NCBI GenBank assembly: GCA_029269845.2
Contig: CP149973.1
Span: forward strand, 840,001 to 872,000
Source of the DNA: Opitutia bacterium KCR 482
Lineage (GTDB): Bacteria; Verrucomicrobiota; Verrucomicrobiia; Opitutales; Intestinicryptomonadaceae
Length of the DNA: 32,000 nucleotides
Direction of reading: 5' to 3'
A program made the translations under genes and the position numbers. The notes beneath the pieces are model-generated. The model had not been told where the DNA came from and searched no databases. It saw nothing but the letters and a program-made list of their open reading frames with translations. This document shows positions 1 to 18,884 of the stretch, one piece after another (positions within the stretch are counted from its first letter, which is position 1; each line of letters starts with the position of its first letter).

Positions 1-1
1 G

Positions 2-529
2 GGGATTTATTCGAGAAACGAATACAGGCGCACGCTCTATTCCTTTTTCAAATTTTGCAAGATGCAGGACTGGCTCGACGTCAACCCCGTTGAGAAAGTG
101 GAAAGCTGGCGAGCAAGGGGCAGAACGCCCGGAATATTCACGCCCGAAGAAGTGCGAAAAATTCTAAACTCCACGCCGCCGCAAAGCGAAATCCGCGCAT
201 TTACAGCCATAGCCGCCTTTACAGGAATACGCAACGCCGAGCTAAAAAGGCTGACTTGGGACAAAATAAGGCTCGACGACCGAGAAATCATACTCGACAG
301 CGAAATTACAAAAACGGCGTCGCGCAGAATCGTAAAGATTCCAGAAAACTTGGCGAAATGGCTCGAACCGTACGTCTGGGATCTCGGCACGAAGAAAAAG
401 ATTCTTACAAGGCGAAAAGTTCCAGTGTTAAAAAAGCTGCACGAGAGCCTCGGCAAAGGCAACTGGATAAAGAACGGCCTGCGCCATTCAGCGGCGACCT
501 ACTACCTCGCTCTGACAAAGAACGCATAA
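2..529 (+). CDS. Tyrosine recombinase (phage-type integrase) fragment. The 5' end runs off the window and the 3' end appears truncated before the catalytic Tyr, so it is probably a pseudogene.
   Basis: The reading frame is open from nt 2, so the ATG at 62 is internal. It has a box I-like TGIRNAELKRLTWDKI and the start of box II, NGLRHSAATYY. It stops 10 codons later (TAA 527-529) without the usual LGH...Y segment. Confidence 0.75.
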   Translation, partial: GIYSRNEYRRTLYSFFKFCKMQDWLDVNPVEKVESWRARGRTPGIFTPEEVRKILNSTPPQSEIRAFTAIAAFTGIRNAELKRLTWDKIRLDDREIILDSEITKTASRRIVKIPENLAKWLEPYVWDLGTKKKILTRRKVPVLKKLHESLGKGNWIKNGLRHSAATYYLALTKNA

Positions 530-533
530 CTCG

Positions 534-1619
534 TTGCCACCCTTGCCACCTTCTTTTGATGTCGAAACAAAAGATGTTTTAAAGGCATGTTTAGAAGCAA
601 CCAGATCATTAGCCGAACTGAAAGGGATTGGAAGTATTCTTCCTGATCAGTCTATATTGATAAATTCAATACCATTACAAGAAGCAAAATTAAGCTCAGA
701 AATTGAAAATATAGTCACAACTCAAGACAAGCTATTCCACGCTAATTTGATAAATGAGAGTAATATTATAAAAGAATCTTCTTATAGCGAAGATAAAATA
801 GACCCTGCGACAAAGGAGGTCATAAAATACAGAACTGCATTAAAATACGGTTACGATGAAATAAGACTACGTAAAAGACCGTTTGATTTAAGATTGATTA
901 GAGACATTTGCTCTATCTTAAGAGGGAAAAGTGTAGATTTTAGAGATTATGGATCTAATGTTGCTCTCGCAAATCCTTATACGCAGGAACGAAGATATAC
1001 TCCGCCAGAAGGTGGAGTCGTTCTAAAGAATAAACTTGATGATTTAGAAAAATATATATTCGAATATAACGAACATGATCCATTAATAAAAATGGCGTTA
1101 ATACATTACCAATTTGAAAGTATTCACCCTTTTGATGACGGAAATGGAAGAACGGGTAGGATTATGAATATTCTATACCTTGTACACGCAGGATTGTTAG
1201 GTATTCCAGTTTTATATCTAAGTAAATATTTGATAGAAAATAAAAACGAATATTATAAGAAGCTGCGCTTAGTTACTGAAAATTCAGAATGGGAATCATG
1301 GGTTCTGTATATGTTAAAAGGCGTCGCCGAAACTGCCCAGATAACAACGAACCGTATAAAACAAATATCTACCCTTTTTTCAGAAATAAGCGATGAAGTT
1401 AAACAAAAAGCTCCCAAAATATATTCTAAGGATCTAATAGAGTCTATATTTAAGCAAGCATATACAAAGGTTTCTTTTCTTGTTCACGACAATATTGCAA
1501 AAAGGCAAACTGCGTCTATATATCTTCAAGAGCTTTCCGCTTTAGGGATATTGGAAGAAATAAAGATAGGCAGAGAAAAAGTATATATAAATTCAAGACT
1601 TGTAGATCTGTTAAGATAA
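534..1619 (+). CDS. Fic/DOC family protein (AMPylase-type, class II with an internal inhibitory helix). The N-terminus may be clipped.
   Basis: HPFDDGNGRTGR matches the Fic motif HxFx(D/E)GNGRxxR. SSEIEN fits the inhibitory motif (S/T)xxxE(G/N). The N-terminus LPPLPPSFDVETK..LAELKG looks like a Fic_N domain. Only a TTG start at 534 is available and the frame opens at 516. The gene is visibly AT-rich compared with the integrase. Confidence 0.85.
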   Translation: MPPLPPSFDVETKDVLKACLEATRSLAELKGIGSILPDQSILINSIPLQEAKLSSEIENIVTTQDKLFHANLINESNIIKESSYSEDKIDPATKEVIKYRTALKYGYDEIRLRKRPFDLRLIRDICSILRGKSVDFRDYGSNVALANPYTQERRYTPPEGGVVLKNKLDDLEKYIFEYNEHDPLIKMALIHYQFESIHPFDDGNGRTGRIMNILYLVHAGLLGIPVLYLSKYLIENKNEYYKKLRLVTENSEWESWVLYMLKGVAETAQITTNRIKQISTLFSEISDEVKQKAPKIYSKDLIESIFKQAYTKVSFLVHDNIAKRQTASIYLQELSALGILEEIKIGREKVYINSRLVDLLR

Positions 1620-1620
1620 T

Positions 1621-1652
1621 TCATGTCGATTTTTTTAAAAAAATCGACATGA
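1621..1652. terminator. Perfect 32-nt A/T-centred palindrome, a likely bidirectional terminator hairpin.
   Basis: TCATGTCGATTTTTTT/AAAAAAATCGACATGA begins 2 nt after the Fic stop. Related TCGACA/ATGTCGA words recur at 1660-1700 and 1989-2010. Confidence 0.45.
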
Positions 1653-2023
1653 ATGTATGATATGTCGATTCGATAAACATATCGAAAAACTTTACTTTGA
1701 TTCTTTTTGAACATTAGATACTTATCTATTTACCAGATGGTATTTTTTTAGGGTCAAGCGCATAATCCATTTATTTTTTAATCCCATTACCATTTGATAA
1801 TAGCCTATTTGAGAATTTTTATTTGGCTGTTTTTTAATAAGACAAATAAAGGCTCTGAAAAACGGAACGCATGGCAAATTTTGCGGAAAATGGAAGTTTA
1901 TATCTTGGAATTCCATTTGTATAACCAGTGTTACATCCTACCCCAAGCAATTTTTGCCAAATTTTTTTGCGCCATATAATCCAAAATCGACACACTTTTA
2001 TTTTGTGTCGTTTTTCAACCTGC

Positions 2024-2043
2024 TTGGGAAACCAGTTTCCCAA
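2024..2043. promoter_or_regulatory. Candidate operator palindrome upstream of the HTH gene.
   Basis: TTGGGAAAC-CA-GTTTCCCAA has 9-bp perfect inverted arms and lies about 85 nt upstream of the ATG at 2129. Confidence 0.4.
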
Positions 2044-2128
2044 CTATTTTTTTCAGCCCTCCAATTCGATTTTTTGCGCAATTTTGCGGCTATTGATTTT
2101 TGAAAAATTTGACACGCGGACATTCTGC

Positions 2129-2386
2129 ATGGAAAAGAAAAAATCCGCAATAACTCAAACATTAACGCAGCCTGACGCAAGCGACAGGCTTTTTACACGC
2201 GCAGAGGTGGCGGAGTATCTCAATATTGGCACAACCTTTATTGAGCAGCTCCGCAGGCAGGGCAAACTGCCGAGCTACCGTCTTTCGGGCAAGTGCATTC
2301 GCTACAAGAAAAGCGATTGCGACGTCCTGCTTGACCACTGCTTTATAGTCCGCCCCGCCAAAAGCGCGAAGAAAGGAGAAATCTAA
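2129..2386 (+). CDS. Small MerR-type HTH DNA-binding protein (AlpA/excisionase-like, HTH_17).
   Basis: LFTRAEVAEYLNIGTTFIEQLRRQGKLPSYRLSGKCIRYKKSDCDVLL matches the excisionase/AlpA HTH pattern. I chose the internal ATG at 2129 rather than the ORF-track start at 1928, because the upstream part is AT-rich with odd composition. The stop overlaps the next start (TAATG). Confidence 0.8.
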   Translation: MEKKKSAITQTLTQPDASDRLFTRAEVAEYLNIGTTFIEQLRRQGKLPSYRLSGKCIRYKKSDCDVLLDHCFIVRPAKSAKKGEI

Positions 2387-3171
2387 TGAGAATTCGCACG
2401 ATAAGCCAAATTTTAGCCGAAGAAAACGAGTCGATGTTTTCATTTGACGACGTTGTTATCGATAAAAACTTTCTGAGCAAGGGTCAAACGTGGGTGATTT
2501 CGGGCGCGACAGGAATCGGCAAAAGCGTTCTTGCCATGCAGCTTTCCCTCGGGCTCGCTTTTGGAGAAAAAACGCTGGGCCTTGAAATTTTTAAGCCCGC
2601 CAAAACGCTTTTGCTCCACAATGAAAACCCGATTATCGACGAGAAGATTTATTTTCGAGGGATTGTCTCGCAGTTTGCGCTCGATGAAAAGCCGAACGCT
2701 GACAGGCTAAACGAAAACCTGCGCATCTCCTGCAAAACAGGCCGCTACTATTCGGTGGACGAATTCATATCGAAACTGGACGCCTCTTTAAGCGCGGGCA
2801 AGTACGATGTGGTAATTGTGGATTCGCTGTCGTCGTTTGTGCATTGCAACTTTTCAGACCATGCGGCGGTTGCCGACCTCTTTTGCAAAATAAATGGGCT
2901 AAAATCGAAGCACAACTTCGCAATGGTCTTGATCCACCACTTCGACAAGCCGATGTTTTGGAGCAAAAGGATTCACCCCGCAAAGTGGTGCATGGGCGGG
3001 AAGGCAATCGGGATTTACGCAAACATAATGTCGGCGCTCGTGGGGACGAAAGAGGAGTCGGTTTTCTCGTTCAGGCATTACAAGCCGTTTGAGGATTCCG
3101 AAATTTCGCAGACGCTCATCGCGCAATGCCAAAACGGCAACACAGCTTGGGAAGAGGTGGAAAATGTCTAG
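2386..3171 (+). CDS. RecA/DnaB-like AAA ATPase (AAA_25-type).
   Basis: Walker A is GATGIGKS and Walker B is YDVVIVDSLSSF. A strong RBS (AAAGGAGAA) lies upstream. The gene is translationally coupled to its neighbours on both sides. Confidence 0.8.
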   Translation: MRIRTISQILAEENESMFSFDDVVIDKNFLSKGQTWVISGATGIGKSVLAMQLSLGLAFGEKTLGLEIFKPAKTLLLHNENPIIDEKIYFRGIVSQFALDEKPNADRLNENLRISCKTGRYYSVDEFISKLDASLSAGKYDVVIVDSLSSFVHCNFSDHAAVADLFCKINGLKSKHNFAMVLIHHFDKPMFWSKRIHPAKWCMGGKAIGIYANIMSALVGTKEESVFSFRHYKPFEDSEISQTLIAQCQNGNTAWEEVENV

Positions 3172-4624
3172 GTTCGTGGCACAAAAAACTCCGCAATTTT
3201 TTGCGACCATGGAGACGCTTTCGGAAGCCTACAAAGAGTTTTACGAAAGCGAATGCCCCATTGACGCCTTTCCGAGGGCTATCCGCGACGTCGCAAGGAC
3301 GTATTCCGTTGGCAGAAATCTGCCAATGGAGCTTCTTTGCTTCTGCGCCTGCGGAATTTTAAGCGGCGCTATGGGCAGAGTGTTCAAGACGAAAAACGCA
3401 GTAAGCGGCGGATACACGCAAACAGGGAATATCTTTGTCCTCGGCGTGGGCGAAAGCTCCACTGGCAAAAGCGCAAGCATTCGCGCCCTTTTCTCCAACT
3501 TGGAAAGAAGGGTTTTGGACGAAATCTTCGAATACAAAAAGGAGCTTGAAAAATTCAAGAAAGCGAAGACAAAGCTCATGCAGGACAAGCTTAACGGCGA
3601 GGACAAATTGGGCTTTGACGACGAAATTGCGGACACGCCCAAGCTCCCGAGAAACCCCGACTTCATCGTGAAAAATTCGACGTCGGAAGCCATGATAAAG
3701 GCGATGGAAGCAAGCGGCGGCGAAATTTTTTCGGTATGCGAGGAAGCCCGCGACAGCATCTATATTGTGGCGGGCAACTATCGCAAGCAGGGCGACGACA
3801 CCGAAACTCTAAACAGCGGCTGGTGCGGCGAGCCCATAAAGCACAACCGAATTGTAAACGGGATTTCAAGCGTTCCCAACCCCTGCATTTCCCTGCTTTG
3901 GATGGTGCAAAACGACGTCATCGACACCATCGTTTCAAAGAACAAAGGCAGCTTTATCGGCAGCGGGTTTCTTGGAAGATTCCTCTACTGCAAAGGCGCT
4001 CCAAAGGCCATTCCAGACTCGAAAGAAATTATCCCGCTCGACGAATCCGCAATTCTCAAATGGGAAAACCTTCTTGCTCAAACCTACCAAACCCGCAAGA
4101 AAGGCCTGCCAGTATGGTTTGACACCGACCAAGACGCCTTCGAGTATTTCTGGGACTTCGACGCATTCAACACGGAACTCATGAACGGCAAACTGCGCAC
4201 GCAGGCTTCTTTGCTTGGCAAGGCAAGGGAAAACGCAATCAGGCTTGCGGTCATTTTCGCGCAGGCTGAAGGCGCGGACCGCATCACCGCCGACATCGCA
4301 AAGCGCGCATGCAGGGTTGTGTCGTATTCAATCTGCGTTTCGGTTGTTTTGTTCTCAAGCGGAATGCTTCCAGAAATCGAAAACGACAGGGCAAAAATGG
4401 ACGCCATGATTCGCCAGAACGACGGCTTCTACAAAAAGATTAGCTTTTTCGACCAGTATTCGAGTTTGCGCAGCGAACGTGTGGAATTTATCGTCCATAC
4501 GTTCCCTGACCTTTACGAAATCGTCAAAAAAGGCAAAGGAAGATACGTCGTTTTAAAGGATAGACTATCCGACGCAAAACAGGCGCTTGGCATCGAAACC
4601 GACGATGACGACGATCTGTTTTAG
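3164..4624 (+). CDS. P-loop protein, DUF3987/YfjI-like (putative replication or helicase-type protein of integrative elements).
   Basis: Walker A-like VGESSTGKS is present. The start ATG at 3164 overlaps the upstream stop (ATGTCTAG). The order int-alpA-like-ATPase-large P-loop protein recalls int-alpA-yfjI modules. The family assignment is from memory and was not searched. Confidence 0.55.
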   Translation: MSRFVAQKTPQFFATMETLSEAYKEFYESECPIDAFPRAIRDVARTYSVGRNLPMELLCFCACGILSGAMGRVFKTKNAVSGGYTQTGNIFVLGVGESSTGKSASIRALFSNLERRVLDEIFEYKKELEKFKKAKTKLMQDKLNGEDKLGFDDEIADTPKLPRNPDFIVKNSTSEAMIKAMEASGGEIFSVCEEARDSIYIVAGNYRKQGDDTETLNSGWCGEPIKHNRIVNGISSVPNPCISLLWMVQNDVIDTIVSKNKGSFIGSGFLGRFLYCKGAPKAIPDSKEIIPLDESAILKWENLLAQTYQTRKKGLPVWFDTDQDAFEYFWDFDAFNTELMNGKLRTQASLLGKARENAIRLAVIFAQAEGADRITADIAKRACRVVSYSICVSVVLFSSGMLPEIENDRAKMDAMIRQNDGFYKKISFFDQYSSLRSERVEFIVHTFPDLYEIVKKGKGRYVVLKDRLSDAKQALGIETDDDDDLF

Positions 4625-4625
4625 C

Positions 4626-4728
4626 AAATAGGGAAAATAGGCAAATAGATAAATAGGCAGAATGTATGAGACCTGCCAGTCGGGGAGAAAATAGGCAAAT
4701 AGGTAAATAGGTGAAATAGACAAATAGA
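4626..4728 (+). repeat. Iteron array 1, forward: nine AAATAGG/AAATAGA words in two clusters.
   Basis: Cluster 4626-4657 has 4 words and cluster 4688-4728 has 5 words, at 8-9 nt spacing. The array starts 2 nt after the stop of the upstream gene. Confidence 0.85.
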
Positions 4729-4800
4729 TTGCAATGCGCATAAAACTTGAAATTTAGTTGACTTTCAAACCGACATCTGGTCTCATGCTTTCTTTATCCC

Positions 4801-4872
4801 GCCCCTGTAGTTCAACGGATAGAACGGGCGTTTCCTAAACGCTAAATCGTGGTTCGATTCCACGTGGGGGCG
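4801..4872 (+). tRNA. tRNA-Arg (anticodon CCU).
   Basis: Manual cloverleaf: acceptor GCCCCTG/TGGGGGC (two G-U pairs), D arm GTTC-AACGGATA-GAAC, anticodon arm GGCGT-TTCCTAA-ACGCT, 4-nt variable loop, T arm CGTGG-TTCGATT-CCACG, discriminator G. No CCA is encoded. Confidence 0.9.
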
Positions 4873-4888
4873 CGGGTATGTTTTTGTT

Positions 4889-4927
4889 AAGCAGCATATT
4901 GCCATTTTTGCGCTCGCTGCTTTTTTT
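4889..4927 (+). terminator. Possible intrinsic terminator after the tRNA.
   Basis: AAGCAGC ... GCTGCTT stem followed by a T7 run. The 20-nt loop is large, so this is tentative. Confidence 0.35.
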
Positions 4928-5058
4928 GTGGGCATAATGCCGTAAGTCCCTAGTAATTGACCTAAAATCTGGCAGAAATCCAGTATATGCCCTTACCATT
5001 TTGGCTTAACGATATGCCCCAAATGGAAGAAAAAATTTCCCCACTGGAAGAATTAATA

Positions 5059-5099
5059 TCTATTTACCTATTTGTCTATTTTACCTATTTCCCCTATTT
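5059..5099 (-). repeat. Iteron array 1, reverse: five CCTATTT/TCTATTT words inverted relative to 4626-4728.
   Basis: Words lie at 5059, 5067, 5075, 5084 and 5093. Extra single copies lie at 5172 and 5444. Together with 4626-4728 they bracket the tRNA gene. Confidence 0.8.
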
Positions 5100-5252
5100 T
5101 GCCGGCAGTGGAGTTGCAGCCCGAACGCCCCGAAGGGAACAGGCGGAGGGCGAAACTTCACTTAGGCAAAATCTATTTCTTAAAAACTCTTTTTTATTCC
5201 ACCTGTTCTATCCCTTGCAGTTTGTCCAACCATTTGGACAAGTTATCGGGTT

Positions 5253-5640
5253 CTGTGAAATAGTCTATGACGTTAAATTCACAAGGTTGGCGATATGGGT
5301 CGAGTTCCATGGTGAAGCCCTCGTCGGTGAAATTAAACCAAGCTCAGTTAGTGAGCAAGTTTTATGCCCCATGAATCCACTGATTGTAAAGCTTTCGGGA
5401 GATGTTTGCTATGGCGTGGTGAAGTTGTGAATTTAACCCAATTTCTATTTAACTTCACCAGTGAAATTAGACCTGTGAAGTTGGGGTATTTTCTTTTTCA
5501 CCCATCGCGCCCGTCTGTGGAGCTGTGAAATTAGGGGGAGATATATACCGTAGGTATATCCCCCAAGTTCACAACTTCACAAGGCGCGAAGGGCGCGGTT
5601 GGGAGGCTTCTTTCTTCTCTCCACAACTCACCGCTTCACA
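5253..5640. repeat. Iteron module 2: GTGAA(A/G)TT words in both orientations around a 31-bp palindrome (5534-5564).
   Basis: Forward words include 5327, 5419, 5427, 5461, 5475 and 5525. The core is GGGGGAGATATATACC-GTA-GGTATATCCCCC. Reverse words AAGTTCAC and AACTTCAC follow at 5566-5581. The tail is AGGCGCGAAGGGCGCGGTTGGGAGGC. Outer inverted TGTGGAG (5516) and CTCCACA (5609) bound the module. Confidence 0.75.
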
Positions 5641-5659
5641 GACAGGTTCGCTATGATGC

Positions 5660-5830
5660 GGAGAAACGGGGAATATGGTGTAATTTCGTTTCTCTGTTTC
5701 TCTGGGGAAACGGACAAACGGGGAAACGGGGAATATTATTTTCCCTATCGCACCGTTAGTGGGGAAACGGGGAAACAGGGAGAGTATATATACCATAGGT
5801 ATATACTCCCGTTTCACCGATTCTCCACAG
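5660..5830. repeat. Iteron module 3: GGGGAAACGG-type words around a 33-bp palindrome (5778-5810), paralogous to module 2.
   Basis: The words are GAGAAACGGGG (5661), CGTTTCTC and TGTTTCTC (reverse, 5686-5702), GGGGAAACGG, ACAAACGG and GGAAACGG (5704-5730), and GGGGAAACGGGGAAACAGG (5761-5779). The core is GGGAGAGTATATATACC-ATA-GGTATATACTCCC. Reverse CCCGTTTCACC follows, then the tail AGGTGCGAAAGGTGCGGTAGGC. Confidence 0.75.
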
Positions 5831-6335
5831 GTGCGAAAGGTGCGGTAGGCTCATCGAGCTGACGAGATTCTCCATGCACCAAAGCAAAGCCGATTAATGG
5901 CTCTATACGAACTCGGGGCGACTTATGAATGTCAAGACTCATATTCGGCAATAGAGCGCCTTTAACGGGTAAAAGACTGCGTTTATTGGCGGGTTAAATT
6001 CGGCGTCATATACAGATGGGGGGGGTATCTAAGGAATCTATTAAACGCTGAGGAACGGCAGGGACGTTCGGCAGGGCGTTTTCTCCTTGCGAATGGCATT
6101 TTTGAAATGTTCCACTTTTTTTCGTTAAGACAGCCCACAATCCAAGTAAAATAGCGCATTCGCAGGCATTTTTTACAGCGGAAAAACTATGGAAAATGTT
6201 CCGTCTTTACGCGGCGCAATCTCCCATTAGCTTAACAACAAGCAACTTGGGAAACGAAAGATTTCCACCCTGCAATTTGCAAACAAAACCAATACGAAAT
6301 CTTAGGTAAAATTAGGAATACATATTGATAAAATA

Positions 6336-7292
6336 TCACTTCAAAAAGTATCCGCCATTTTTGGGCGCGCCCCTAAATTCGATAAACTCGCTTAACGATT
6401 TCAAGTATCGACTAAGCGTTCTGACGGGAATATTCAAGGCCTTTGCAATATCGTTTGTGTTTGCGCCTTGGTTGTTTCGGATAAACTCAAGCACGTCATT
6501 TACTCTGCCATTTAGTCTGCCGTTTACTCTGCCACTTTGGCTTGTTTGGTGCAGTTTTAGAGTCTTTAAAATCTCGCCAAGCATAAAATCCACGAATATT
6601 CCCGAATCGTTTTTTGCGGAGCTATCGTTAATTGCCTCATAATAATTTTGCTGATTATTATAAACCATTGTTTCCACCGGCAAATATTGAAATAATGGAT
6701 TGAACTTGGATAAAATTAAAGACTGCCAAAGCCTTCCCATTCTGCCGTTCCCGTCCGCAAACGGGTGTATAAACTCAAATTCATAATGGAACACGCAGCT
6801 TTTTATAAGCGGGTGGTCTTCCGAATTTTTCAGCCAATCAAATAAATTTTCTATCAATTCCGAAACCATTTCAGCTGGCGGAGCTATGTGGACGGCTTTA
6901 TCGTCGTCAAAGACCCCGACGCCGCCCGACCTAAATTTGCCCGCTTCCGAGACGAGAGATTTCATCATTTCGGAATGCGCTTTCAACAGGTCTGATATGG
7001 AAAAAGGATCATATTTTTGAAAACTATCGTAAGCTTTAATCGCGTTTTTTACTTCCATAATTTCCCTAAGAGGCGCGACAACTTTTTTTCCGTTTAAAAT
7101 ATCGCTAACTTGCTCCTCGGAAAGATTGTTTCCCTCTATCGCAAGCGAGGAATGAATTGTTTTTATCTTGTTGGATTTTCGCAGTCTTAGGGAGTCCTTT
7201 TCCATTAAAATCGAATGCCGTTCTAAGAGCGCGGAAATTTCGGCAATCATAGATATTGCTTTTGCGGACACTGTAAACGGCGGTTTCTTCAT
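6336..7292 (-). CDS. Fic/DOC family protein (class II) with a C-terminal winged-helix DNA-binding domain.
   Basis: HPFADGNGRMGR is the Fic motif. SLAIEGN fits the inhibitory (S/T)xxxE(G/N) motif. The C-terminal NDIAKALNIPVRTLSRYLKSL is HTH-like. Confidence 0.88.
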   Translation of the reverse strand: MKKPPFTVSAKAISMIAEISALLERHSILMEKDSLRLRKSNKIKTIHSSLAIEGNNLSEEQVSDILNGKKVVAPLREIMEVKNAIKAYDSFQKYDPFSISDLLKAHSEMMKSLVSEAGKFRSGGVGVFDDDKAVHIAPPAEMVSELIENLFDWLKNSEDHPLIKSCVFHYEFEFIHPFADGNGRMGRLWQSLILSKFNPLFQYLPVETMVYNNQQNYYEAINDSSAKNDSGIFVDFMLGEILKTLKLHQTSQSGRVNGRLNGRVNDVLEFIRNNQGANTNDIAKALNIPVRTLSRYLKSLSEFIEFRGAPKNGGYFLK

Positions 7293-7404
7293 ACGATTTT
7301 AACAAGCAAACATAGTAAGAATTTTCGTTCCCTTTTCAAGACTTTTAACGCCCAAAGTGCCATTTTGGCACTTTAGAAAATCTCTACATGGCACTTTGGA
7401 ACTT

Positions 7405-7698
7405 TTAGTAATCTTCTGGAAATAGCATAGTGGTAACGCTTCTGTCCCATTCGGTGATTATCCAGATTTTTTCACCGTCTGGAAGCGTGTATGCGGACAG
7501 CAATCTTTCGCCTGTTTTAAGGGCTTGGTCGTTTGCGTCCTTGTCCTCTTGGCAGACATCGCCCCAATCTCCTTGGGCGTGGAGGACAAGATATGGAAGC
7601 AATGCAAAGCGGTTCCTTTCACAATGCTCGAATAAATGTGTTGTTGATACGATTTCACCTAGGCGGAACTTTGATTCTATGAATACTCTTTCTTCCAT
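7405..7698 (-). CDS. Small conserved hypothetical protein (GDWG motif).
   Basis: The 97-aa ORF is tightly packed with its upstream neighbour (2-nt gap). HAQGDWGDVCQEDKDANDQAL...IWIITEWDRSVTTMLFPEDY resembles a small family I recall seeing on plasmids and ICEs, but I cannot name it. Confidence 0.6.
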   Translation of the reverse strand: MEERVFIESKFRLGEIVSTTHLFEHCERNRFALLPYLVLHAQGDWGDVCQEDKDANDQALKTGERLLSAYTLPDGEKIWIITEWDRSVTTMLFPEDY

Positions 7699-7700
7699 GA

Positions 7701-7970
7701 TTACGCTATGTTGAAGGTCGTTTTGATGTATTCTTTGCCTTTGTCCGTAAGCATTAGGACGGCGTCCCGATGCCCAGACCTTGAAATTATGTAGCCTTTC
7801 TTGTTAAGCGAGGACAGCACTCCAGATCGTGTTCTTGCGTTAAGCCCTCGGGCTTTGAGATTGTCCGAAAAGGCGTCAGCCCAAAGTGTGGACTCCACCC
7901 CGCTATCGCAGAATTCGTCCTCTATATAGGCTTGCAGGACTATCTTCTCTTTCTCGGTTAGCTTATCCAT
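7701..7970 (-). CDS. Small hypothetical protein, possibly winged-helix-like.
   Basis: The 89-aa ORF overlaps the upstream gene by 8 nt. I recognise no diagnostic motif. Confidence 0.55.
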   Translation of the reverse strand: MDKLTEKEKIVLQAYIEDEFCDSGVESTLWADAFSDNLKARGLNARTRSGVLSSLNKKGYIISRSGHRDAVLMLTDKGKEYIKTTFNIA

Positions 7971-8166
7971 TGGAGACCTCCTGCACGTCGTCTATTTCAA
8001 AGGTTCTGCTTACGTCGATTTCGTTGCTCGTATCGTAGAGGTCGTATTCCCTTTGATTGTCGCTTACCTCTTGGCGGGCTTCGTCGGCATTTTCAGCTTC
8101 GATTTCAATCTCGCCAGTTTTGATTGTCGTTACGATGTATGTGTATGTGATTTTGTATGTCTTCAT
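7963..8166 (-). CDS. Small highly acidic hypothetical protein (67 aa).
   Basis: I chose the internal ATG at 8166 (MKTYKITYTY...) over the ORF-track start at 8256. It has 17 Asp/Glu against 6 Lys/Arg. It is first in a three-gene minus-strand operon divergent from hsdM. Confidence 0.5.
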   Translation of the reverse strand: MKTYKITYTYIVTTIKTGEIEIEAENADEARQEVSDNQREYDLYDTSNEIDVSRTFEIDDVQEVSNG

Positions 8167-8603
8167 TTTCGCCCTTTGTTGCTTATTGGTTGACTTGCCT
8201 GATTGGCGGTTTGTCCATGTTGCTATTATACCATAATTTAAATAAATTTGCAACATTTTTATTTATCTTTTTTATTGCGCACCAACCACTTACATAAATA
8301 ACCGAGAGCAAAAAAGACGAAAAATAATCTTGAATTTTTTAGCGGGAAATCTGATAGGTTCGAAATCTATATTATTCCGAGTGTATTTTTTGTACCTATA
8401 GAAGTTGTACTTTCTTCAATGTTCAAAAAGATATTACAAGTATCACATCCTGAAACGAAGAATTTTTAGGGTAAATATTTTTTATTACAAATCGGCTTTT
8501 GGGCATTTTAGGATTGAACGGTTATAAAAAATATTTATCGTGTTGAGCGTTTAAATTTGCTAGGGAATTTCAATGATTATATTCACATAATAAAAGGTGA
8601 AAT

Positions 8604-10325
8604 ATGTTAAATAAACAGTTGAAAGAATTAAAAGATAGGTTGTGGGCGACGGCGGATCAACTCAGAGCAAACTCCGGTTTGAAGGCCACCGAGTATGCAG
8701 AACCAGTGTTAGGTTTGATTTTCCTTAGATTTGCCGACGTGAAATACTCTAAGCATGAAGCAGAGATAATCCGTGAATTTAACAAGCTCAAAGGTTCTCG
8801 TATGGGAAGGCCTATTCACGAGATTGCTATTGAAAGATGCGGATATTATCTCCCGAAAGAATCCAGATATAATGAACTCTTGAATTTACCAGATAATGCT
8901 AACCTTGCCCAAGCCGTCAAAAATGCAATGATAGCGATTGAAAAGTACACTAAAGAGCTTGAAGATACGCTTCCCAAAGATATTTATTACAATGTAAACA
9001 CTCAAGAAAATCCGTTGGTACTTTCCAACCTCTTGAGAAACTTCAAAGATATTCCAGAGAATGTGGAGCTGGATATTTTCGGTGAAATATATGAATACTT
9101 TTTAGGTAAGTTTGCATTGGCAGAAGGCCAAGGCGGGGGAGAGTTCTTCACGCCATCAAGCGTTGTTAAATATATGGTTGAAGTTCTGAACCCCAAAGAA
9201 GGTAAGATACTTGACCCCGCATGTGGTTCTGGCGGTATGTTCGTACAAACAGCACACTACATTGAAAGACACAAAAATAAAGGCGAGCATATCAACTTGA
9301 GAGCTTATGGAATTGAGAAAACTCAACAGACCGTAAGACTTGCCAAGATGAACCTTGTGTTAAACAATGTCAGAGGGGAAATAACCCACGCTAACTCTTA
9401 TTATAGCGACCCTTATGAAAGCTATGGGAACTTTGATTATGTAATGGCGAATCCCCCATTCAATGTTGATGATGTTTTACTGGGGAAAGTAAAAGGCCAG
9501 CCAAGATTTAATGAATATGGAATTCCTCAGAACAAGCCCAAGAAAAAGAAGAATGATGTTAAAGAAACCGTTCCGAATGCCAACTATTTGTGGATAAACT
9601 TGTTTGCTACTTCCTTGAAAGATACTGGAAGAGCAGCTTTAGTTATGGCAAACTCAGCTTCTGATGCTGGGAATAGCGAATTAGATGTAAGAAAGAAACT
9701 TATTGAAAGTGGAGTTATCAAACAAATGGTTACTCTTCCTTCAAATATGTTCTCTTCTGTAACACTCCCAGCTACATTGTGGTTCTTTGATAAGGCTAAA
9801 GAACATAAAGACGAGATCCTTTTTATTGATGCAAGAAATGTCTTTACTCAGATAGACAGAGCACACAGGAAGTTTTCAGCAGAACAGATTAGAAACTTAG
9901 GTGTTATAACAAGACTCTATGAAGGTGATACAGAAGAATTCACCAAGTTAATTAAAGAGTATGAAACCAACATAGATAATGCTCCAGAAACTTCTGATGA
10001 AGAAGATAATCCACCTAAGAGCTACTGGCAAGAAAATATAGATTGGTTAAAGGAACGCTTCCCAGAAGGTAAATACAGAGATGTTATTGGTCTGTGTAAA
10101 GTAGCTAAACTTGAAGGTGAAGACGGTGTTAAAGACCAAGACTATTCCTTAAATCCCGGCAGATATGTAGGAGTTGTCATTGAAGATGACGGAATGACAG
10201 AGGAAGAGTTCAAGAAGAAAATATTGGCACTACATACAGAATGTCTAACTATATCAAAAGAAATAATTGATCTAGAAAAAGATATAAACAGTAATATTCA
10301 AGAACTATTTGGAGCTAATTCATGA
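8604..10325 (+). CDS. hsdM: Type I restriction-modification system, DNA methyltransferase subunit M.
   Basis: The N-terminus is HsdM_N-like (LWATADQLRANSGLKATEYAEPVLGLIFLRF). SAM motif I is DPACGSGGMF and catalytic motif IV is NPPF (VMANPPFNV). An RBS (AAGGTGA) is present. The stop overlaps the hsdS start (ATGA). Confidence 0.95.
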   Translation: MLNKQLKELKDRLWATADQLRANSGLKATEYAEPVLGLIFLRFADVKYSKHEAEIIREFNKLKGSRMGRPIHEIAIERCGYYLPKESRYNELLNLPDNANLAQAVKNAMIAIEKYTKELEDTLPKDIYYNVNTQENPLVLSNLLRNFKDIPENVELDIFGEIYEYFLGKFALAEGQGGGEFFTPSSVVKYMVEVLNPKEGKILDPACGSGGMFVQTAHYIERHKNKGEHINLRAYGIEKTQQTVRLAKMNLVLNNVRGEITHANSYYSDPYESYGNFDYVMANPPFNVDDVLLGKVKGQPRFNEYGIPQNKPKKKKNDVKETVPNANYLWINLFATSLKDTGRAALVMANSASDAGNSELDVRKKLIESGVIKQMVTLPSNMFSSVTLPATLWFFDKAKEHKDEILFIDARNVFTQIDRAHRKFSAEQIRNLGVITRLYEGDTEEFTKLIKEYETNIDNAPETSDEEDNPPKSYWQENIDWLKERFPEGKYRDVIGLCKVAKLEGEDGVKDQDYSLNPGRYVGVVIEDDGMTEEEFKKKILALHTECLTISKEIIDLEKDINSNIQELFGANS

Positions 10326-11437
10326 ATTATAAGAAACTTAGTGATGTAGCTTATTATTCAGAGTTACGCACAAAAGATATAACTATTGAAAATTACATAA
10401 CGACAGACAATATGCTTCCTAATATTGGGGGAGTATGTTTAGCTTCTTCAATCCCAGACAGCAAGACAGCTAAATATTATAAAGACGGAGACATTCTTCT
10501 CTCTAATATCCGACCTTATTTCTGTAAGATATGGTATGCAAATAGATGTGGTTCTGCTTCAAATGACATATTAGTGATAAAGAATAATAAAGATGTTAAT
10601 TCAAAGTTCCTATACTATGTCTTATGTGATAAGAACTTCTTTAATTATGATACTGTTACATCAAAGGGCACTAAAATGCCCAGAGGAACCCCTAATGCAA
10701 TAATGAAATACCTTGTTCCTGATATTGATGATAAAGTACAAATAAAAATAGCTTCTATATTATCTGATTATGATGATTTGATTGAGAAGAATAACCGTAA
10801 GATTGAGATTCTGCAAGAAATGGCAGAAGAGTTATATAAGGAATGGTTTGTTCGCTTCCGTTTTCCCGGCTACAAGACAGCTAAGTTTGAAAATGGTATT
10901 CCTAAAGACTGGGGTGTTGATAAGATAAAGAATAAGGTAAATAGACTTCCATTTAATAAACTGTATAAAGAAGCTGACCTTGAAAAAGAAGGAAATGTTA
11001 TTGTTATTGACCAATCTGAAAAAGAATATTTAGGATTTCATAATAATGAACCTTCACATGTTGCAAGTATTGATGAACCTATTTGTTTGTTTGGAGACCA
11101 CAGTTGCAAGTTTAAACTCATGTCTGAACCATTTTCTCTAGGTGAAAATGTTGTACCATTCAAGGGGCAAGGTGTTAATCCTTACTATCTTTTCTATGCT
11201 ACACACCACATTATTGAAACAGAAGAATATAAACGACATTGGGGTTTATTCACATCAAAGAAAATTCTTATTCCAACAGAACCAATACAAGATAAGTTTG
11301 CAGAGTTTATAAAAGTTATACAGCAACAAACGAATACAATAACCAAATGCCAGAGATTATTGATTAAACAGCGTGATTTATTGTTACCAAGACTAATGTC
11401 TGGTAAACTGGAAGTGAAGGTAAAACAAGAGGTGTAG
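10322..11437 (+). CDS. hsdS: Type I restriction-modification system, specificity subunit S.
   Basis: The central conserved region is LIEKNNRKIEILQEMAEELYKEWFVRFRFPGY and the C-terminal conserved region is LLIKQRDLLLPRLMSGKLEV, giving a two-TRD layout. It sits between hsdM and hsdR. Confidence 0.92.
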   Translation: MNYKKLSDVAYYSELRTKDITIENYITTDNMLPNIGGVCLASSIPDSKTAKYYKDGDILLSNIRPYFCKIWYANRCGSASNDILVIKNNKDVNSKFLYYVLCDKNFFNYDTVTSKGTKMPRGTPNAIMKYLVPDIDDKVQIKIASILSDYDDLIEKNNRKIEILQEMAEELYKEWFVRFRFPGYKTAKFENGIPKDWGVDKIKNKVNRLPFNKLYKEADLEKEGNVIVIDQSEKEYLGFHNNEPSHVASIDEPICLFGDHSCKFKLMSEPFSLGENVVPFKGQGVNPYYLFYATHHIIETEEYKRHWGLFTSKKILIPTEPIQDKFAEFIKVIQQQTNTITKCQRLLIKQRDLLLPRLMSGKLEVKVKQEV

Positions 11438-11438
11438 T

Positions 11439-14400
11439 ATGGCGAACTTTATATCAGAAGATAATATAGAACAAGCGGCCATTAAGTTATTGGTTGAAAA
11501 CCATAACTATAAAGCAATCCGTTGCTTTACGGAAAGTCCTGATACACTTCCTGATAACTCAGGTAGAGAAAATAAGAAACAAGTTGTTCTCCCGGAAATC
11601 CTATTGGAACAGTTGATTAAACTGAATCCGAATATCCCGGAAGAGACTGTTAAAAGTCAGTGGATAGAATTATGCCATACTCCAGCGACCTATGAGATAA
11701 TGGATGAAAACTATAAGAACTATTTGAAAATCAAAAATGGTATTGATGTTACATACCAAAAGGATGGCAAGAAAGAATCCAACAAGTTAATACTTATAGA
11801 TTTCAATAACCCGGAAAATAACAGCTTCCATGTTGTATCTCAGCTATGGATTAAAGGTGAAACATATAACAGAAGACCAGACCTCATAATATATGTAAAC
11901 GGTTTACCTCTGGTATTCATAGAATTAAAGAACTCAAATATCCCGGTAAAAAATGCTTATGACAAGAACTTGAAGGATTATTTGAAAGATATTCCGTACT
12001 TATTTAATTATAACCAGATATGCGTATTATCTAACGGTATTGAAACAAGACTGGGAAGTTTCAAGGCAGATTATAACTACTTCTTTGAATGGTTAAAAAT
12101 TGAAGGTGAAGATGAAACCCCGGATAGAAAGCGTATCCGAGAGCAAGGAGTAAGTTTGGAATACTTCATCAAGGGTCTTTGTAAACCAGAGAACTTGCTG
12201 GATTATGTTGAAAACTTTATTCTGTACGACAGAAAGAGTACAAAGATTATTGCCAAGAACCACCAGTTCTTCGGTGTAAATAATGCTTATGAGTCATTCC
12301 TTCACAGAAAAGAGAAAGGCGGAAAACTCGGTGTATTCTGGCACACTCAAGGCAGTGGGAAAAGCTATTCCATGGTATTTCTGGCAAACAAGATTAACAG
12401 AAAGTGTGCTGGTAATTATACATTCCTTGTTGTTACGGACAGAGCTGATTTAGATACTCAGATTTATAAGAACTTCCTAAGAACAGGATTTATTAGCGAA
12501 AAGGAACAAGTAAGACCGAAGAACAGCAAAGAGCTGAGGAAAGAACTCACTACAAATAAGAAGATATTGTTCACTTTAATTCACAAGTTCCGTTATGACA
12601 AGGGGAAAGAATATCCCATTTTGTCTGAAAGAGACGATATTGTTGTGGTTGTTGATGAAGCTCACAGAACCCAGTATAAAGACCTTGCGGAAAATATGAG
12701 AAAAGGTCTGCCAAATGCCCAATATATCGCATTTACGGGTACGCCATTATTGGGTTCAAAGAGACTCACTAACCAATGGTTTGGTGATTATGTAAGTGAA
12801 TATAACTTTTCTGATTCAATAGAAGACAATGCAACAGTCCCTTTGTACTACGTCAAAAGAGTCCCGGAAGTCAGCCTTGAAAACGACTTTTTTAATGACG
12901 ATTTCATTGAAATATTGGAAGATGAAAACCTAACAGAAGAAGAACAAAAGAGGCTTGAAACCCATTATGCCAAAGAACTGGAAGTTATCAAGAGAGAGGA
13001 CAGACTTGATACTATCGCTAAATACATTGTGAAGCATTTCCCATACAGAGGATTTCGCGGCAAAGGTATGGTAGTTTCTGTCGATAAATTCACGGCAGTT
13101 AAGATGTACGATAAGGTTCAGCATTATTGGAAAGAAGAGATAAAAGAACTAAACAGAACCATATCCCAGACAAGAGATGAATTTGAAAGACAACGCTTGA
13201 AAGATATAGTTAATTATATGAACAGCGTTGAAATGGCCGTTGTAATAAGTACAGAAGGAACAGAAGACGAAGAGAAAAATTTCAACAAGGAAGGGCTCAC
13301 CATTAAACCGCATATCCTGCGAATGAGCCAAGTTGATGAAAACGGTTATGATATAGAAGATAACTTTAAGGATCCAAAACACCCGCTCCAATTGGTATTT
13401 GTATGCGCAATGTGGCTGACAGGATTTGATGCGCCTTCTGTTTCAACGCTATACCTTGATAAACCTATGAAAGGTCATACCCTGATGCAGACAATCGCTA
13501 GGGCAAACAGAGTGTACGAAAACAAAACCTGCGGTTTGATTGTAGACCATATCAATGTATTTAAGCACTTGAAAAGAGCATTGGCGGATTATGCTTCAAA
13601 TGATAATGTTGATACGCCAGTAAAGGATATTGAAATATTATTCCGTAAATTAAACGAATGTATAGATATGGCTTGCAAATTCTGCTCAGCTCACAATGCA
13701 GAATTGAAAGATATTGTTGATGAAGATGAAGTGTTCAAGAACATAGAGAAGTTTGAATCTTATGCAAACAGTATTGTTGGTAATGATGAAGTGAAGAATG
13801 AATTTCAAGTGTTGGCAAATACGGTTGAGAATATATATGAGTCATTGAAACCAGAAATATTCACTATGGAATTTGCAAACAAGCCGTATAAAGAAGCTAT
13901 TTTGTACCTTCGAGACATCATTAACGGTAAAGTAAGACCAGAGAAAATTGAATCGGCGCAGGGAAGAATAAACAAGCTATTAGACCAAAGTGTAATTGCA
14001 ACTGATGATGCGAAGAAATATATCATCAATGAAGAAGGGAAAGAGTTGGATTTATCTATTATCGATATAGATGAATTAAAAGCTGAGTTTAAAAAAGTTA
14101 CCAACAAGAATCTTGTTATATCTGACCTTAGAAAACATATTGAGGGTAAGTTAGAAATAATGCTCAAGAAGAACAAGACTAGAACCAAGTTCGCTGAACG
14201 GTTTAAGGGTATTATCGACGAATATAATGCTGGTGGTTCGCAGAATGAAGACTTCTATGAAAAACTCCTTGAGCTGATGCGAATGATGAAAGAAGAAGAG
14301 GCGCGACATGTTAAAGAAGAGCTTTCAGAAGAAGAACTGGAAATCTTTGATTTGTTATGCAAAGACTCATTAACCAAAGAAGAAGAAAAAAAGGTTAAGT

Positions 14401-14633
14401 TGGCGGCCAAAAGCTTATATAATGCCTTACTCGAGAATAAAAAAGAGCTCTTTGTTGTTGATTGGCAGAACGACCCAACCCCGAGAGAAAAAGTAAGAAG
14501 TAAAATTAATTCTGTATTGAATGAGTATCTTCCGAAATCCTACGACAGAATTATATTTCAAACAAAGAGCGACATCATATTTCAGCACATAGTAGAACAA
14601 GCGACAATGGGATATAATTGGATAGCCGCATAG
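11439..14633 (+). CDS. hsdR: Type I restriction endonuclease subunit R.
   Basis: The N-terminal PD-(D/E)xK core is RPDLIIYVNGLPLVFIELKN. Helicase motifs are HTQGSGKS (I), VVVDEAHRTQ (II), FTGTPL (III) and QTIARANR (VI). An RBS (GAGGTG) is present. Confidence 0.95.
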   Translation: MANFISEDNIEQAAIKLLVENHNYKAIRCFTESPDTLPDNSGRENKKQVVLPEILLEQLIKLNPNIPEETVKSQWIELCHTPATYEIMDENYKNYLKIKNGIDVTYQKDGKKESNKLILIDFNNPENNSFHVVSQLWIKGETYNRRPDLIIYVNGLPLVFIELKNSNIPVKNAYDKNLKDYLKDIPYLFNYNQICVLSNGIETRLGSFKADYNYFFEWLKIEGEDETPDRKRIREQGVSLEYFIKGLCKPENLLDYVENFILYDRKSTKIIAKNHQFFGVNNAYESFLHRKEKGGKLGVFWHTQGSGKSYSMVFLANKINRKCAGNYTFLVVTDRADLDTQIYKNFLRTGFISEKEQVRPKNSKELRKELTTNKKILFTLIHKFRYDKGKEYPILSERDDIVVVVDEAHRTQYKDLAENMRKGLPNAQYIAFTGTPLLGSKRLTNQWFGDYVSEYNFSDSIEDNATVPLYYVKRVPEVSLENDFFNDDFIEILEDENLTEEEQKRLETHYAKELEVIKREDRLDTIAKYIVKHFPYRGFRGKGMVVSVDKFTAVKMYDKVQHYWKEEIKELNRTISQTRDEFERQRLKDIVNYMNSVEMAVVISTEGTEDEEKNFNKEGLTIKPHILRMSQVDENGYDIEDNFKDPKHPLQLVFVCAMWLTGFDAPSVSTLYLDKPMKGHTLMQTIARANRVYENKTCGLIVDHINVFKHLKRALADYASNDNVDTPVKDIEILFRKLNECIDMACKFCSAHNAELKDIVDEDEVFKNIEKFESYANSIVGNDEVKNEFQVLANTVENIYESLKPEIFTMEFANKPYKEAILYLRDIINGKVRPEKIESAQGRINKLLDQSVIATDDAKKYIINEEGKELDLSIIDIDELKAEFKKVTNKNLVISDLRKHIEGKLEIMLKKNKTRTKFAERFKGIIDEYNAGGSQNEDFYEKLLELMRMMKEEEARHVKEELSEEELEIFDLLCKDSLTKEEEKKVKLAAKSLYNALLENKKELFVVDWQNDPTPREKVRSKINSVLNEYLPKSYDRIIFQTKSDIIFQHIVEQATMGYNWIAA

Positions 14634-14646
14634 TAATCTTTTTCAC

Positions 14647-14689
14647 TTGTTCGGAATTTCCGAACAACTTGTAAGAAATCCTTACAAGT
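14647..14689 (+). terminator. Two tandem hairpins after hsdR.
   Basis: TTGTTCGGAA-T-TTCCGAACAA (14647-14667) is followed by ACTTGTAAG-AAATC-CTTACAAGT (14667-14689). No strong T-run follows. Confidence 0.5.
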
Positions 14690-14910
14690 TCAGACTTGTG
14701 AGAAAACGAGCCTCAAGAAAATGATATCGAGTTTTTGACGATTTTCCTGCGAAGTGATAGCGCAAATCAATTTTCGCCTAACAAAATCGCTCCTTAAAAT
14801 AAAACATCTGATTCCTGACAACAGGCATTCCTTCTCCCTTTTTCCCAGAATTTGTCTTTAAAAAACGCACAATAAAAATAGGCAAAAAGGAAGTAGCCTG
14901 TTTTTTCATT

Positions 14911-14939
14911 TTGACTCATTATCCCATTGTGGCTCTAAT
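14911..14939 (+). promoter_or_regulatory. Possible sigma70-type promoter for the 1,234-aa ORF.
   Basis: TTGACT-N17-TCTAAT lies about 145 nt upstream of the ATG at 15085. The host's promoter rules are unknown. Confidence 0.3.
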
Positions 14940-15084
14940 AGATTTAAGATTCTTTTTCTGTAACTTTAGATAATCTTTTCTCTTGAAAATAAAAACACAG
15001 GATTACATAATAATAATCATGTTAAACAACATACGTTTTTACTATCTATAAAAGTAATTCCTACGAATAGCAGTCTATAAACAT

Positions 15085-18862: not shown

Positions 18863-18884
18863 AGATACCATAACGGGACAGGGT

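Follow-up and report, generated by a model that had tools for sequence, protein, structure and literature searches.

Three putative iteron-type replication origins in a genomic island of gut Verrucomicrobiota, two of them apparent orphan copies of phage origins

Introduction

The stretch of DNA analysed here (the window) comprises 32,000 nucleotides of Opitutia bacterium KCR 482 (assembly GCA_029269845.2, contig CP149973.1, positions 840,001 to 872,000 of the forward strand) and contains a genomic island, recognizable as a stretch of low GC (guanine plus cytosine) content at about 1-19.6 kb of the window in host DNA of 55% GC. The genes of the island follow the order integrase (3' part), Fic, HTH_17, AAA_25, DUF3987, a non-coding region, Fic/HTH, type I restriction-modification and a 1234-aa protein. 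Our subject is the non-coding region, in which three short words recur in both orientations: array 1 begins directly after the DUF3987 gene and encloses a tRNA-Arg gene, and two adjacent units, modules 2 and 3, lie beyond it. We found that modules 2 and 3 are homologous to units situated 3' of primase-helicase genes in phages and that array 1 is laid out like an origin of the island itself. From these sequence relationships we propose that the region probably represents three iteron-type origins, the island's own and two orphan phage origins that would be fired by phage initiators.

The genes preceding array 1 form an integrase-HTH-rep module. An AlpA/excisionase-like gene (2129-2386, plus strand; Pfam HTH_17, 2.7e-10; PHROG 'excisionase and transcriptional regulator') is followed by a RecA/DnaB-like AAA_25 ATPase gene (2386-3171, plus strand; Pfam AAA_25, 1.7e-18) and by a helicase-like DUF3987 gene (3164-4624, plus strand; Pfam DUF3987, 7.7e-41; PHROG 'DNA helicase', 3e-27), whose product we presume to be the initiator for array 1. 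The start of the DUF3987 gene was set at 3164 because its homologues are 484-486 aa long.

Results

Word arrays of the non-coding region

An earlier note on this DNA had reported three clustered short words, and the clustering proved to be strong for all three. Expected counts were taken from dinucleotide shuffles of the window (100 shuffles for AAATAGG), none of which reached the observed values. Exact AAATAGG occurs 16 times where 5.9 ± 2.6 copies are expected (0 of 100 shuffles reach 16), GTGAARTT 10 times against 3.4 ± 1.8 and GGAAACRG 8 times against 2.5 ± 1.6. Nine of the 16 AAATAGG copies fall within 4626-5099, eight of the 10 GTGAARTT copies within 5154-5580 and four GGAAACRG copies within 5706-5778. 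Counted with the degenerate word A[AG]ATAG[GA], array 1 consists, as the note had it, of nine forward copies (4626-4728) and five reverse copies (5059-5099), with the tRNA-Arg(CCT) gene (4801-4873) bracketed between the half-arrays.

Module 2 (5408-5650, plus strand; word GTGAARTT) and module 3 (5651-5862, plus strand; word GGGGAAACGG) can be aligned as paralogous units of ~245 nt in which 73% of the columns are identical, in agreement with the homology originally noticed between them, and their cores and tails are present as quoted at the time, the core palindromes being GGGGGAGATATATACC-GTA-GGTATATCCCCC at 5534-5564 and GGGAGAGTATATATACC-ATA-GGTATATACTCCC at 5778-5810. In both modules forward words are followed by the AT-rich palindrome and then by reverse words, and each module ends in an imperfect hairpin of ~100 nt (5501-5603 and 5744-5840) with arms built of the words. 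When folded as DNA the two hairpins reach -31.8 and -31.4 kcal/mol (z = -7.9 and -7.6), and both strands fold about equally well. Additional GTGAA[AGT]T[TA] words are scattered in both orientations upstream of module 2 (5154-5334). A weaker version of the module tail had also been claimed to follow array 1 (5129-5152), a claim that we do not uphold: this segment has no convincing homology to the module tails and is part of a separate, imperfect 70-nt hairpin (5098-5170; DNA fold -18.2 kcal/mol, z = -3.5). The latter lies directly after the reverse half-array, has a GC-rich centre and has arms (GTGGAGTT / AACTTCAC) that resemble the module-2 word; 4.6% of its columns are variable among the island copies compared below.

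Decayed coding sequence was considered as the origin of the region and rejected: the frame spanning the phage units has no PHROG match and only slight third-position bias, and it reads the words in different frames. Searched by DNA similarity against PLSDB plasmids and INPHARED phages, 4600-5900 gave the tRNA as its sole match; Rfam, at gathering thresholds and at E <= 1, returned only the tRNA plus a chance miRNA match. Promoter and terminator predictions in 4500-6400 were not more numerous than in shuffles, and a literature search on the palindrome string found no paper.

Homologues of modules 2 and 3 in phages

Scanning one genome per species for core plus tail yielded five loci (loci and contigs are designated by L numbers), all of them in Opitutales. 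Four of the five are the same island at 87-96% nucleotide identity. The fifth, L035, is a phage that has module 3 alone; it corresponds to the IMG/VR provirus L025/L037, 75 kb in length, from Puniceicoccaceae. Its replication module encodes AAA_24, an exonuclease, a DEAD helicase and a 675-aa PriCT_2+AAA_25 primase-helicase (hereafter Rep), and the unit occupies the interval between the stop codon of the primase-helicase and the beginning of the following gene. With this L035/L037 unit, situated 3' of the PriCT_2+AAA_25 gene, module 3 shares 93.1% identity over 203 nt; the unit that lies 3' of the primase-helicase gene in virus contig L039 matches module 2 at 90.3% identity over 196 nt. Units of the module-2 type are also found in prophage L153 and in L155.

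Rep relatives drawn from IMG/VR and metagenomes carry comparable units with other words. At Rep identities of 83-88% (L039, L153) the word is GTGAAATT, of the module-2 type, and at 68% (L155) it is GTGAARTT, with the same core as in the island's module 2. The word changes to GGTGAAY at 57% (L156), to CGGTGAG at 52% (L040) and to TTTGGATG at 46% (L041), and the Prim-Pol+PriCT_2+AAA_25 protein of L028 is accompanied by TGCTCCAC. The phage units begin at the Rep stop codon in the relatives examined, and 3' of the gene in eight additional relatives there are 7-mers in both orientations, which coding controls lack. Over 73% of its length the Rep family shares 32% identity with primases from temperate phages of Streptococcus, Enterococcus and Paenibacillus, and the origins of Streptococcus phages lie downstream of the replication module (PMC13575424). 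Modules 2 and 3 would thus be orphan copies of putative origins from two related temperate phages.

The island joins modules 2 and 3 head to tail at the motif GGAGGTGnnCnATGA. In phages GGAGGTGnnCnATGA stands on both sides of the unit, where it comprises a ribosome-binding site and an ATGA stop/start overlap, and unequal exchange between two phages explains the tandem arrangement. A 15-nt direct repeat flanking the phage unit raised the possibility of miniature inverted-repeat transposable element or transposon ends; this was ruled out, since the repeat is the duplicated ribosome-binding site with its ATGA overlap and, in addition, the unit stays in place after Rep genes that are only 46-57% identical and carry different words.

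The 19-nt palindrome ATATATACC-GTA-GGTATAT was also observed in six unrelated viral contigs of IMG/VR with very different GC contents (L023, L024, L027, L029, L030 and L031), where it is flanked by other inverted words such as GTCTATA and GGACA; in two AT-rich phages there are two palindrome copies 50 nt apart. The C-GTA-G centre of the palindrome could form a GNA-type triloop. In L153 (7440-10016) the DEAD/ResIII helicase encoded upstream of the primase-helicase is 858 aa long, compared with 524 aa for its equivalent in L035, and has Hom_end_hint matches, which suggests an intein or homing endonuclease insertion.

Words follow the C-terminus of the initiator

Between the Reps of L035 (module-3 type) and L039 (module-2 type), identity drops from 89% in the core (residues 215-580) to 62% in the last ~90 residues. 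The core of the L155 Rep is equidistant from the two types (69-71% identical to both), and its C-terminus is 79-80% identical to those of the module-2-type Reps and 60% identical to that of the module-3 type. In these sequences word type tracks the C-terminal ~90 residues of Rep and not the core, an indication that the C-terminal domain is passed on and swapped as a unit with the putative origin beside it. Moreover, substitutions between the units of L153 and L155 avoid the words, with 4/64 inside words and 64/217 outside them (Fisher p = 5e-5), as would be expected if the words are protein-specific DNA sites. The earlier proposal that a single scaffold had diversified its binding specificity is therefore retained for modules 2 and 3, with the amendment that the diversification appears to have taken place in the phage family, in step with the C-terminal domain of the primase-helicase.

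Conservation of the orphan pair in the island

The two modules are found in the island without the phage genes that accompany them elsewhere. A tblastn search of the window with the phage Reps and the downstream gene detected no decayed rep, the only match being the island's AAA_25 gene (2350-3084), whose product shares 28% identity with the AAA_25 part of the phage proteins and has no counterpart of their C-terminal domain. Conservation was expressed as the share of variable columns among five island copies from four host genera. Only 2.3% of columns are variable in the module-2 words, 2.7% in the module-2 hairpin and 1.8% in the module-3 hairpin, compared with 13% in the linker between the modules and 16-49% in neighbouring non-coding DNA. 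The flanking Shine-Dalgarno motifs (GGAGGTG in the phages) are decayed in the island, and the module-2 reading frame ends after three codons. Decay has thus hit what DNA binding does not need: ribosome-binding sites, reading frame and linker.

In island loci that have either module both are always present, including loci with other cargo or with a DUF3987 protein that is only 76% identical (L124, L144). Three island variants (L003, L149 and L152) are without the pair, and in two of the island copies (L033 and L036) ~60 nt of module-3 words has been lost. Puniceicoccaceae Marseille-Q1082 harbours both the island (L036) and the prophage with the module-3-type unit (L035).

Over positions 1-8300 of the window the island is 87-96% identical in L032, L033, L034 and L036, which belong to Intestinicryptomonas porci, uncultured Opitutales and Puniceicoccaceae Marseille-Q1082. 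This similarity indicates recent transfer of the island between orders of Verrucomicrobiota, provided that the host of the window is read as Akkermansia, whereas the source record places it in Opitutales.

Array 1 and the DUF3987 gene

The forward half of array 1 (4626-4728, plus strand) consists of nine AAATAG[GA] words in two clusters and begins 2 nt past the DUF3987 stop codon. An AT-rich spacer (4729-4800, plus strand), which from its sequence is predicted to hold the promoter region of the tRNA gene (TTGACT at 4758), separates it from that gene, and the five AAATAG[GA] words of the reverse half follow at 5059-5099 (minus strand; 11% variable columns among the five island copies). The word AAATAG[GA] is kept in all 16 metagenome relatives (76-97% protein identity), with 3-9 copies and varying spacers. 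In each the array directly follows the DUF3987 stop codon, and the 5' half of the tRNA gene is found 100-220 nt further on.

A second DUF3987 family (L001, L133-L142), 43% identical to the first, has DnaG zinc-ribbon and Toprim genes upstream instead of AAA_25, and its word is CTTTAGAC, with two forward copies right after the stop codon and three reverse copies ~110 nt further on. The centre of the CTTTAGAC array contains a terminator-like hairpin and a 105-nt AT-rich stretch, and there is no tRNA gene between its halves. The origins of Staphylococcus aureus pathogenicity islands (SaPIs) have 6-12 iterons immediately 3' of rep and an AT-rich centre, with at least two oppositely directed iterons on each side (PMC9371898). 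Because array 1 matches this layout in being rep-adjacent, with opposite-facing words, an AT-rich centre and a paralogue that has a different word, it is most likely the island's own replication origin.

The DUF3987 protein of the window was not on record in an exact-protein look-up, and searching PDB sequences with it and with the phage Rep gave nothing useful. An AlphaFold2 model, based on an alignment of only 13 close homologues, reached a mean pLDDT (predicted local distance difference test score) of 36.

The tRNA-Arg recombination site and the inversion

The tRNA-Arg(CCT) gene enclosed by array 1 is borne by the island (4801-4873, plus strand; ARAGORN and Rfam, 58.7 bits), and its anticodon loop (~4828-4840), GCGTTT-CCT-AAACGC, constitutes a recombination core. 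In related loci the 5' half of the gene is joined at the anticodon loop to at least four different partners, and an inverted 5' half with anticodon loop marks the island/host boundary of the window (19571-19616, minus strand; 95.6% identity over 46 nt to 4793-4838). The host tRNA-Arg gene is split by the island, its 3' half lying on the minus strand left of the integrase gene (L143, 6436-6482) and its 5' half at 19571-19616, and the island carries a complete tRNA-Arg gene in the orientation opposite to that of the host tRNA.

In L143, L145 and L151 (contigs L006, L012 and L007, respectively) a segment of ~14.7 kb (4838 to 19570) is inverted, and both orientations occur in gut metagenome contigs. 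The invertible segment comprises the 3' half of the tRNA gene, the reverse half-array, modules 2 and 3, Fic, type I restriction-modification and the 1234-aa gene. Inversion brings the tRNA gene and the reverse half-array up against the host flank and leaves the forward half-array facing the cargo end. Either orientation leaves exactly one intact tRNA-Arg gene, with a different upstream region driving it. The crossover is placed within tRNA positions 28-38 because the polymorphic position 27 stays with its flank in both states. Since the inversion and the various joins share one point, GCGTTT-CCT-AAACGC is identified as a site-specific recombination site in the spacer of array 1, and inversion or insertion at the anticodon loop splits or joins the array 1 halves.

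In L001 (10670-15160), L002, L115, L127 and L129 the anticodon loop of the island tRNA gene is interrupted by a second element, and other loci have another 3' half at this point. The second element encodes a 164-aa open reading frame, HTH_17, a DnaG zinc-ribbon protein, Toprim and the DUF3987 paralogue with its own putative CTTTAGAC origin; its left end always reads ...TTATTATCAACGTTTTGCGC..., and no integrase of its own was seen within the stretch fetched. The tRNA genes differ in their T stems, which are CCGTG/CACGG in the displaced host 3' half, CGTGG/CCACG in the island and CGAGG/CCTCG in a third variant found elsewhere, all of them self-consistent. Two direct copies of CGTAAAAATGCGCAAAA, 54 nt apart, lie at 19412-19482, ~90-150 nt from the right-hand core of the island. 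A related motif, TTTTGCGC, lies close to the core where the second element ends in L001 and occurs again shortly downstream of the tRNA gene (4905-4913). The CGTAAAAATGCGCAAAA and TTTTGCGC motifs are candidates for the real integrase arm sites.

Other features of the island and its flank

Following the module pair is a non-coding block (6020-6318) with 80.5% identity over 302 nt to L001 15164-15462, the counterpart in L001 coming after the CTTTAGAC array of the second DUF3987 family; the block is variable among the island copies (49% variable columns). There are two different Fic-domain genes in the island (534-1619 and 6336-7292), the first of which is replaced in some relatives (L147, L149, L152) by a DUF6088 gene. 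The 1234-aa protein (15085-18789) and a 160-aa protein (18885-19367) have no Pfam match, and variants of the former in other contigs are 1208 and 1212 aa long. Situated directly after the type I restriction-modification genes at the far end of the island, these two genes may constitute an undescribed defence gene pair. The host flank encodes a pilus/secretin operon, an Amuc_1100-family gene and RNase P RNA, the features from which the host was read as Akkermansia.

Discussion

A model for the three arrays

The earlier note had offered a replication origin, a partition site, an origin of transfer or recombinase sites as possible roles of the region. Of these the replication origin is favoured, and recombinase arm and core sites keep some weight for array 1 only. 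The note had also tied the region to the adjacent ATPase/DUF3987 module, and this link fits array 1 and fails for modules 2 and 3, the apparent orphan copies of two phages' origins.

At array 1 the island initiator, the DUF3987 protein and probably together with it the AAA_25 ATPase, would bind as multimers to the AAATAG[GA] words on both sides of the AT-rich spacer, melt the spacer and load itself, as SaPI Rep does. The island encodes neither of the two phage initiators, and modules 2 and 3 would therefore stay idle unless such a phage entered the cell or was induced. In that event the primase-helicase of the phage would attach to its words in the island, open the AT-rich palindrome and set off a round of island replication, amplifying the island with its defence cargo to the possible benefit of island or host. 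Initiator spent on the island would be lost to the phage, an effect of the kind described as phage-encoded resistance (PER), and possession of two specificities would widen the range of phages to which the island can respond. More tentatively still, we entertain the idea that the island keeps 'pirated' origins, one for each phage initiator specificity, so that the phage multiplies the defence genes, possibly feeds packaging and loses initiator to decoys, with the tRNA-loop inversion serving as an on/off switch for the origin; we regard this fuller scheme as possible, though doubtful.

Several observations weigh against the origin model. The conservation of the modules could come in part from recent acquisition or from gene conversion with phages, not from selection on the island. 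The C-terminus of DUF3987 is fairly conserved across the two families with different words, which are least alike at residues ~105-165 and ~285-330 and not at the C-terminus. The spacer of array 1, 330 bp with a tRNA gene, is far larger than SaPI spacers, and in roughly one in four related loci the two half-arrays do not lie together. Finally, an open frame of 82-94 aa spans the unit in six phages and is ATGA-coupled at both ends. We interpret it as a bridging frame of the operon; in lambda, too, the origin is located inside gene O.

Alternative explanations

Crossover does take place at the anticodon loop between the half-arrays, as witnessed by the five insertions and three inversions described above and by the association of position 27, which confines the exchange to tRNA positions 28-38, and there is an excisionase-like HTH_17 gene. 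Array 1 could accordingly be read as arm-type sites (P and P' arms) of the island tyrosine integrase around a tRNA anticodon-loop core, like a phage attachment site (attP), with integrase and excisionase driving inversion and insertions; the window state indeed resembles attP and attB in inverted order, and the inverted state attL and attR. We nevertheless rate this reading lower, as unlikely, because the word cluster is missing from other junctions with the same core, both at 19480-19570 and where the second element has its left end, and because the CTTTAGAC array of the paralogue, with its different word, has no tRNA gene or core between its halves. The words of array 1, moreover, begin 2 nt after the DUF3987 stop codon, their 14 copies at 8-9-bp spacing are far above what is typical of arm sites, only a single AAATAGA occurs next to the integrase gene, and a Pfam scan detected no arm-binding domain in the integrase, which may none the less have one. 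For modules 2 and 3 we consider it equally unlikely that they are functionless scars of recombination between the island and two phages, carried along since a recent acquisition. Such scars would account for the missing cognate initiator, for the degraded Shine-Dalgarno motifs and broken module-2 frame, for the module-3 words lost in L033 and L036 and for the absence of the pair from L003, L149 and L152. They would not account for hairpins and words with 1.8-2.7% variable columns beside non-coding DNA with 16-49%, for decay limited to parts irrelevant to DNA binding, or for the retention of the pair with different cargo and with the 76% identical DUF3987 of L124 and L144.

It is much less probable that the product of the modules is a structured RNA or small protein, with the words as a by-product. 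The hairpins are very stable, and in six phages the frame runs from an ATGA overlapping the Rep stop codon to an ATGA at the next gene despite a TGA in one frame of the forward words. The peptides, however, have no PHROG match; substitutions between L153 and L155 by codon position are 21/17/30, compared with 44/30/102 and 50/40/89 in flanking genes, and avoid the words whatever the frame, the words themselves being read in different frames; and the frame is cut short after three codons in the island's module 2. Nor do the modules belong to an Rfam family even at E <= 1, and both strands fold alike, as expected of a DNA palindrome. The least probable reading, which we hardly credit, is that the arrays form a partition centromere (parS/parC-like) or an origin of transfer (oriT) for mobilization of the island. 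Clusters of short direct and inverted repeats do occur at parC sites and near nic sites, and the island is read as moving between Verrucomicrobiota orders. Against this, no ParA, ParB, ParM, relaxase or coupling-protein domain was detected by Pfam in ~25 open reading frames of the window (among which the 1234-aa and 160-aa proteins are unannotated), and the arrays are tied to the 3' ends of replication genes in the phages and in both DUF3987 families.

Comparison with known systems

The earlier note knew of no described element with this design, yet SaPI origins (PMC9371898) and the stem-loops of pRN1 and BIP-1 (PMC4234260) are comparable. The similarity to SaPIs and other phage-inducible chromosomal islands extends to the gene order int-HTH-rep-ori and to a copy number of words that varies between elements. 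Iterons directly follow rep in array 1, its 16 relatives and the phage units, though not in the window's modules 2 and 3, and opposite-facing iterons around an AT-rich centre are found in array 1 (9/5), in modules 2 and 3 and in the second DUF3987 array (2/3). SaPI Rep reads its iterons via a C-terminal winged helix, and each initiator has its own word (PMC9371898); in the phage Rep family, too, the word varies with the presumed initiator and tracks its C-terminus. The two DUF3987 families have one word each. The differences are that the words here are 7-8 nt long rather than 5-6 nt, that the spacer of array 1 spans 330 bp and holds a tRNA gene doubling as a recombination site, and that the presumed initiator is a DUF3987 protein with a separate AAA_25, which has no PDB sequence match and for which PHROG offers only 'DNA helicase'.

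In pRN1 (ORF904) a stem-loop of ~100 nt lies 3' of the primase-helicase gene and is required for replication, and the same layout has been predicted in phage BIP-1 (PMC4234260). The phage homologues of our modules likewise have a ~100-nt stem-loop directly 3' of a primase-helicase gene (Prim-Pol+PriCT_2+AAA_25 in L028, PriCT_2+AAA_25 in L035), and they share with pRN1 and BIP-1/BPP-1 a multidomain initiator composed of Prim-Pol/PriCT_2, a helicase and a C-terminal DNA-binding domain. Unlike pRN1, in which the authors stress the absence of iterons, the units described here are built of iterons; the helicase is AAA_25 (RecA/DnaB-like) and not of superfamily 3, and the stem-loops of the window are detached from any such gene.

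The PER effect is exemplified by phiSfi21 of Streptococcus thermophilus, whose 302-bp non-coding origin, when provided in trans, is replicated once the phage infects, blocks the phage and causes less phage DNA to accumulate (PMC6356513). Modules 2 and 3 resemble it in being putative phage origins without their initiator, 90-93% identical to phage units in a window that contains no phage Rep. PER, however, was shown on cloned multicopy plasmids and depends on copy number, whereas the modules, recognized from their sequence, are single-copy, stand in tandem with two specificities and reside in an integrative island with a replicon of its own.

Satellite phage P4 has more than one iteron cluster (ori and crr). 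The two clusters share a word and a protein, in contrast to the three words found here, two of which match initiators that the island does not encode. The P4 alpha primase-helicase reads octamer iterons via a C-terminal winged-helix domain (as summarised in PMC4234260). As in lambda-type attP sites and tRNA islands, a core in the tRNA anticodon loop lies here between word clusters, with a tyrosine integrase and an excisionase-like HTH gene nearby. In contrast to attP, the words are absent from other junctions of the same core and the rep-linked CTTTAGAC counterpart has no core; in contrast to tRNA-targeting islands, the inverted tRNA gene is complete and is not only a 3' fragment.

Implications

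Iteron origins 3' of rep, Rep-specific words and stem-loop origins are already known, and known phage satellites have been described as replicating from their own origin (PMC10803314). What appears new is the retention of two orphan phage origins in tandem beside the island's own, a tRNA recombination site inside the island origin with natural inversion variants, and the wide recurrence of a TATATACC-GTA-GGTATATA palindrome as the putative origin centre in unrelated viral contigs.

PER, the use of phage origins in trans as a defence, is reportedly known mainly from cloned plasmids. If our proposal is correct, capture of origins would be a route by which islands sense and exploit phages, and it would operate in an island that, with the window host read as above, spreads across orders of gut Verrucomicrobiota including Akkermansia. 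The phage units would illustrate how, in nature, the C-terminal domain of an initiator can be swapped jointly with its iterons as a single specificity module, and would point to a widespread design of phage origins in which Rep-specific words surround a palindrome of the TATATACC-GTA-GGTATATA type. Array 1 would be an origin with a recombination site in its midst, open to experimental test, and in practical terms the region may supply candidate origins for replicons in Akkermansia and its relatives.

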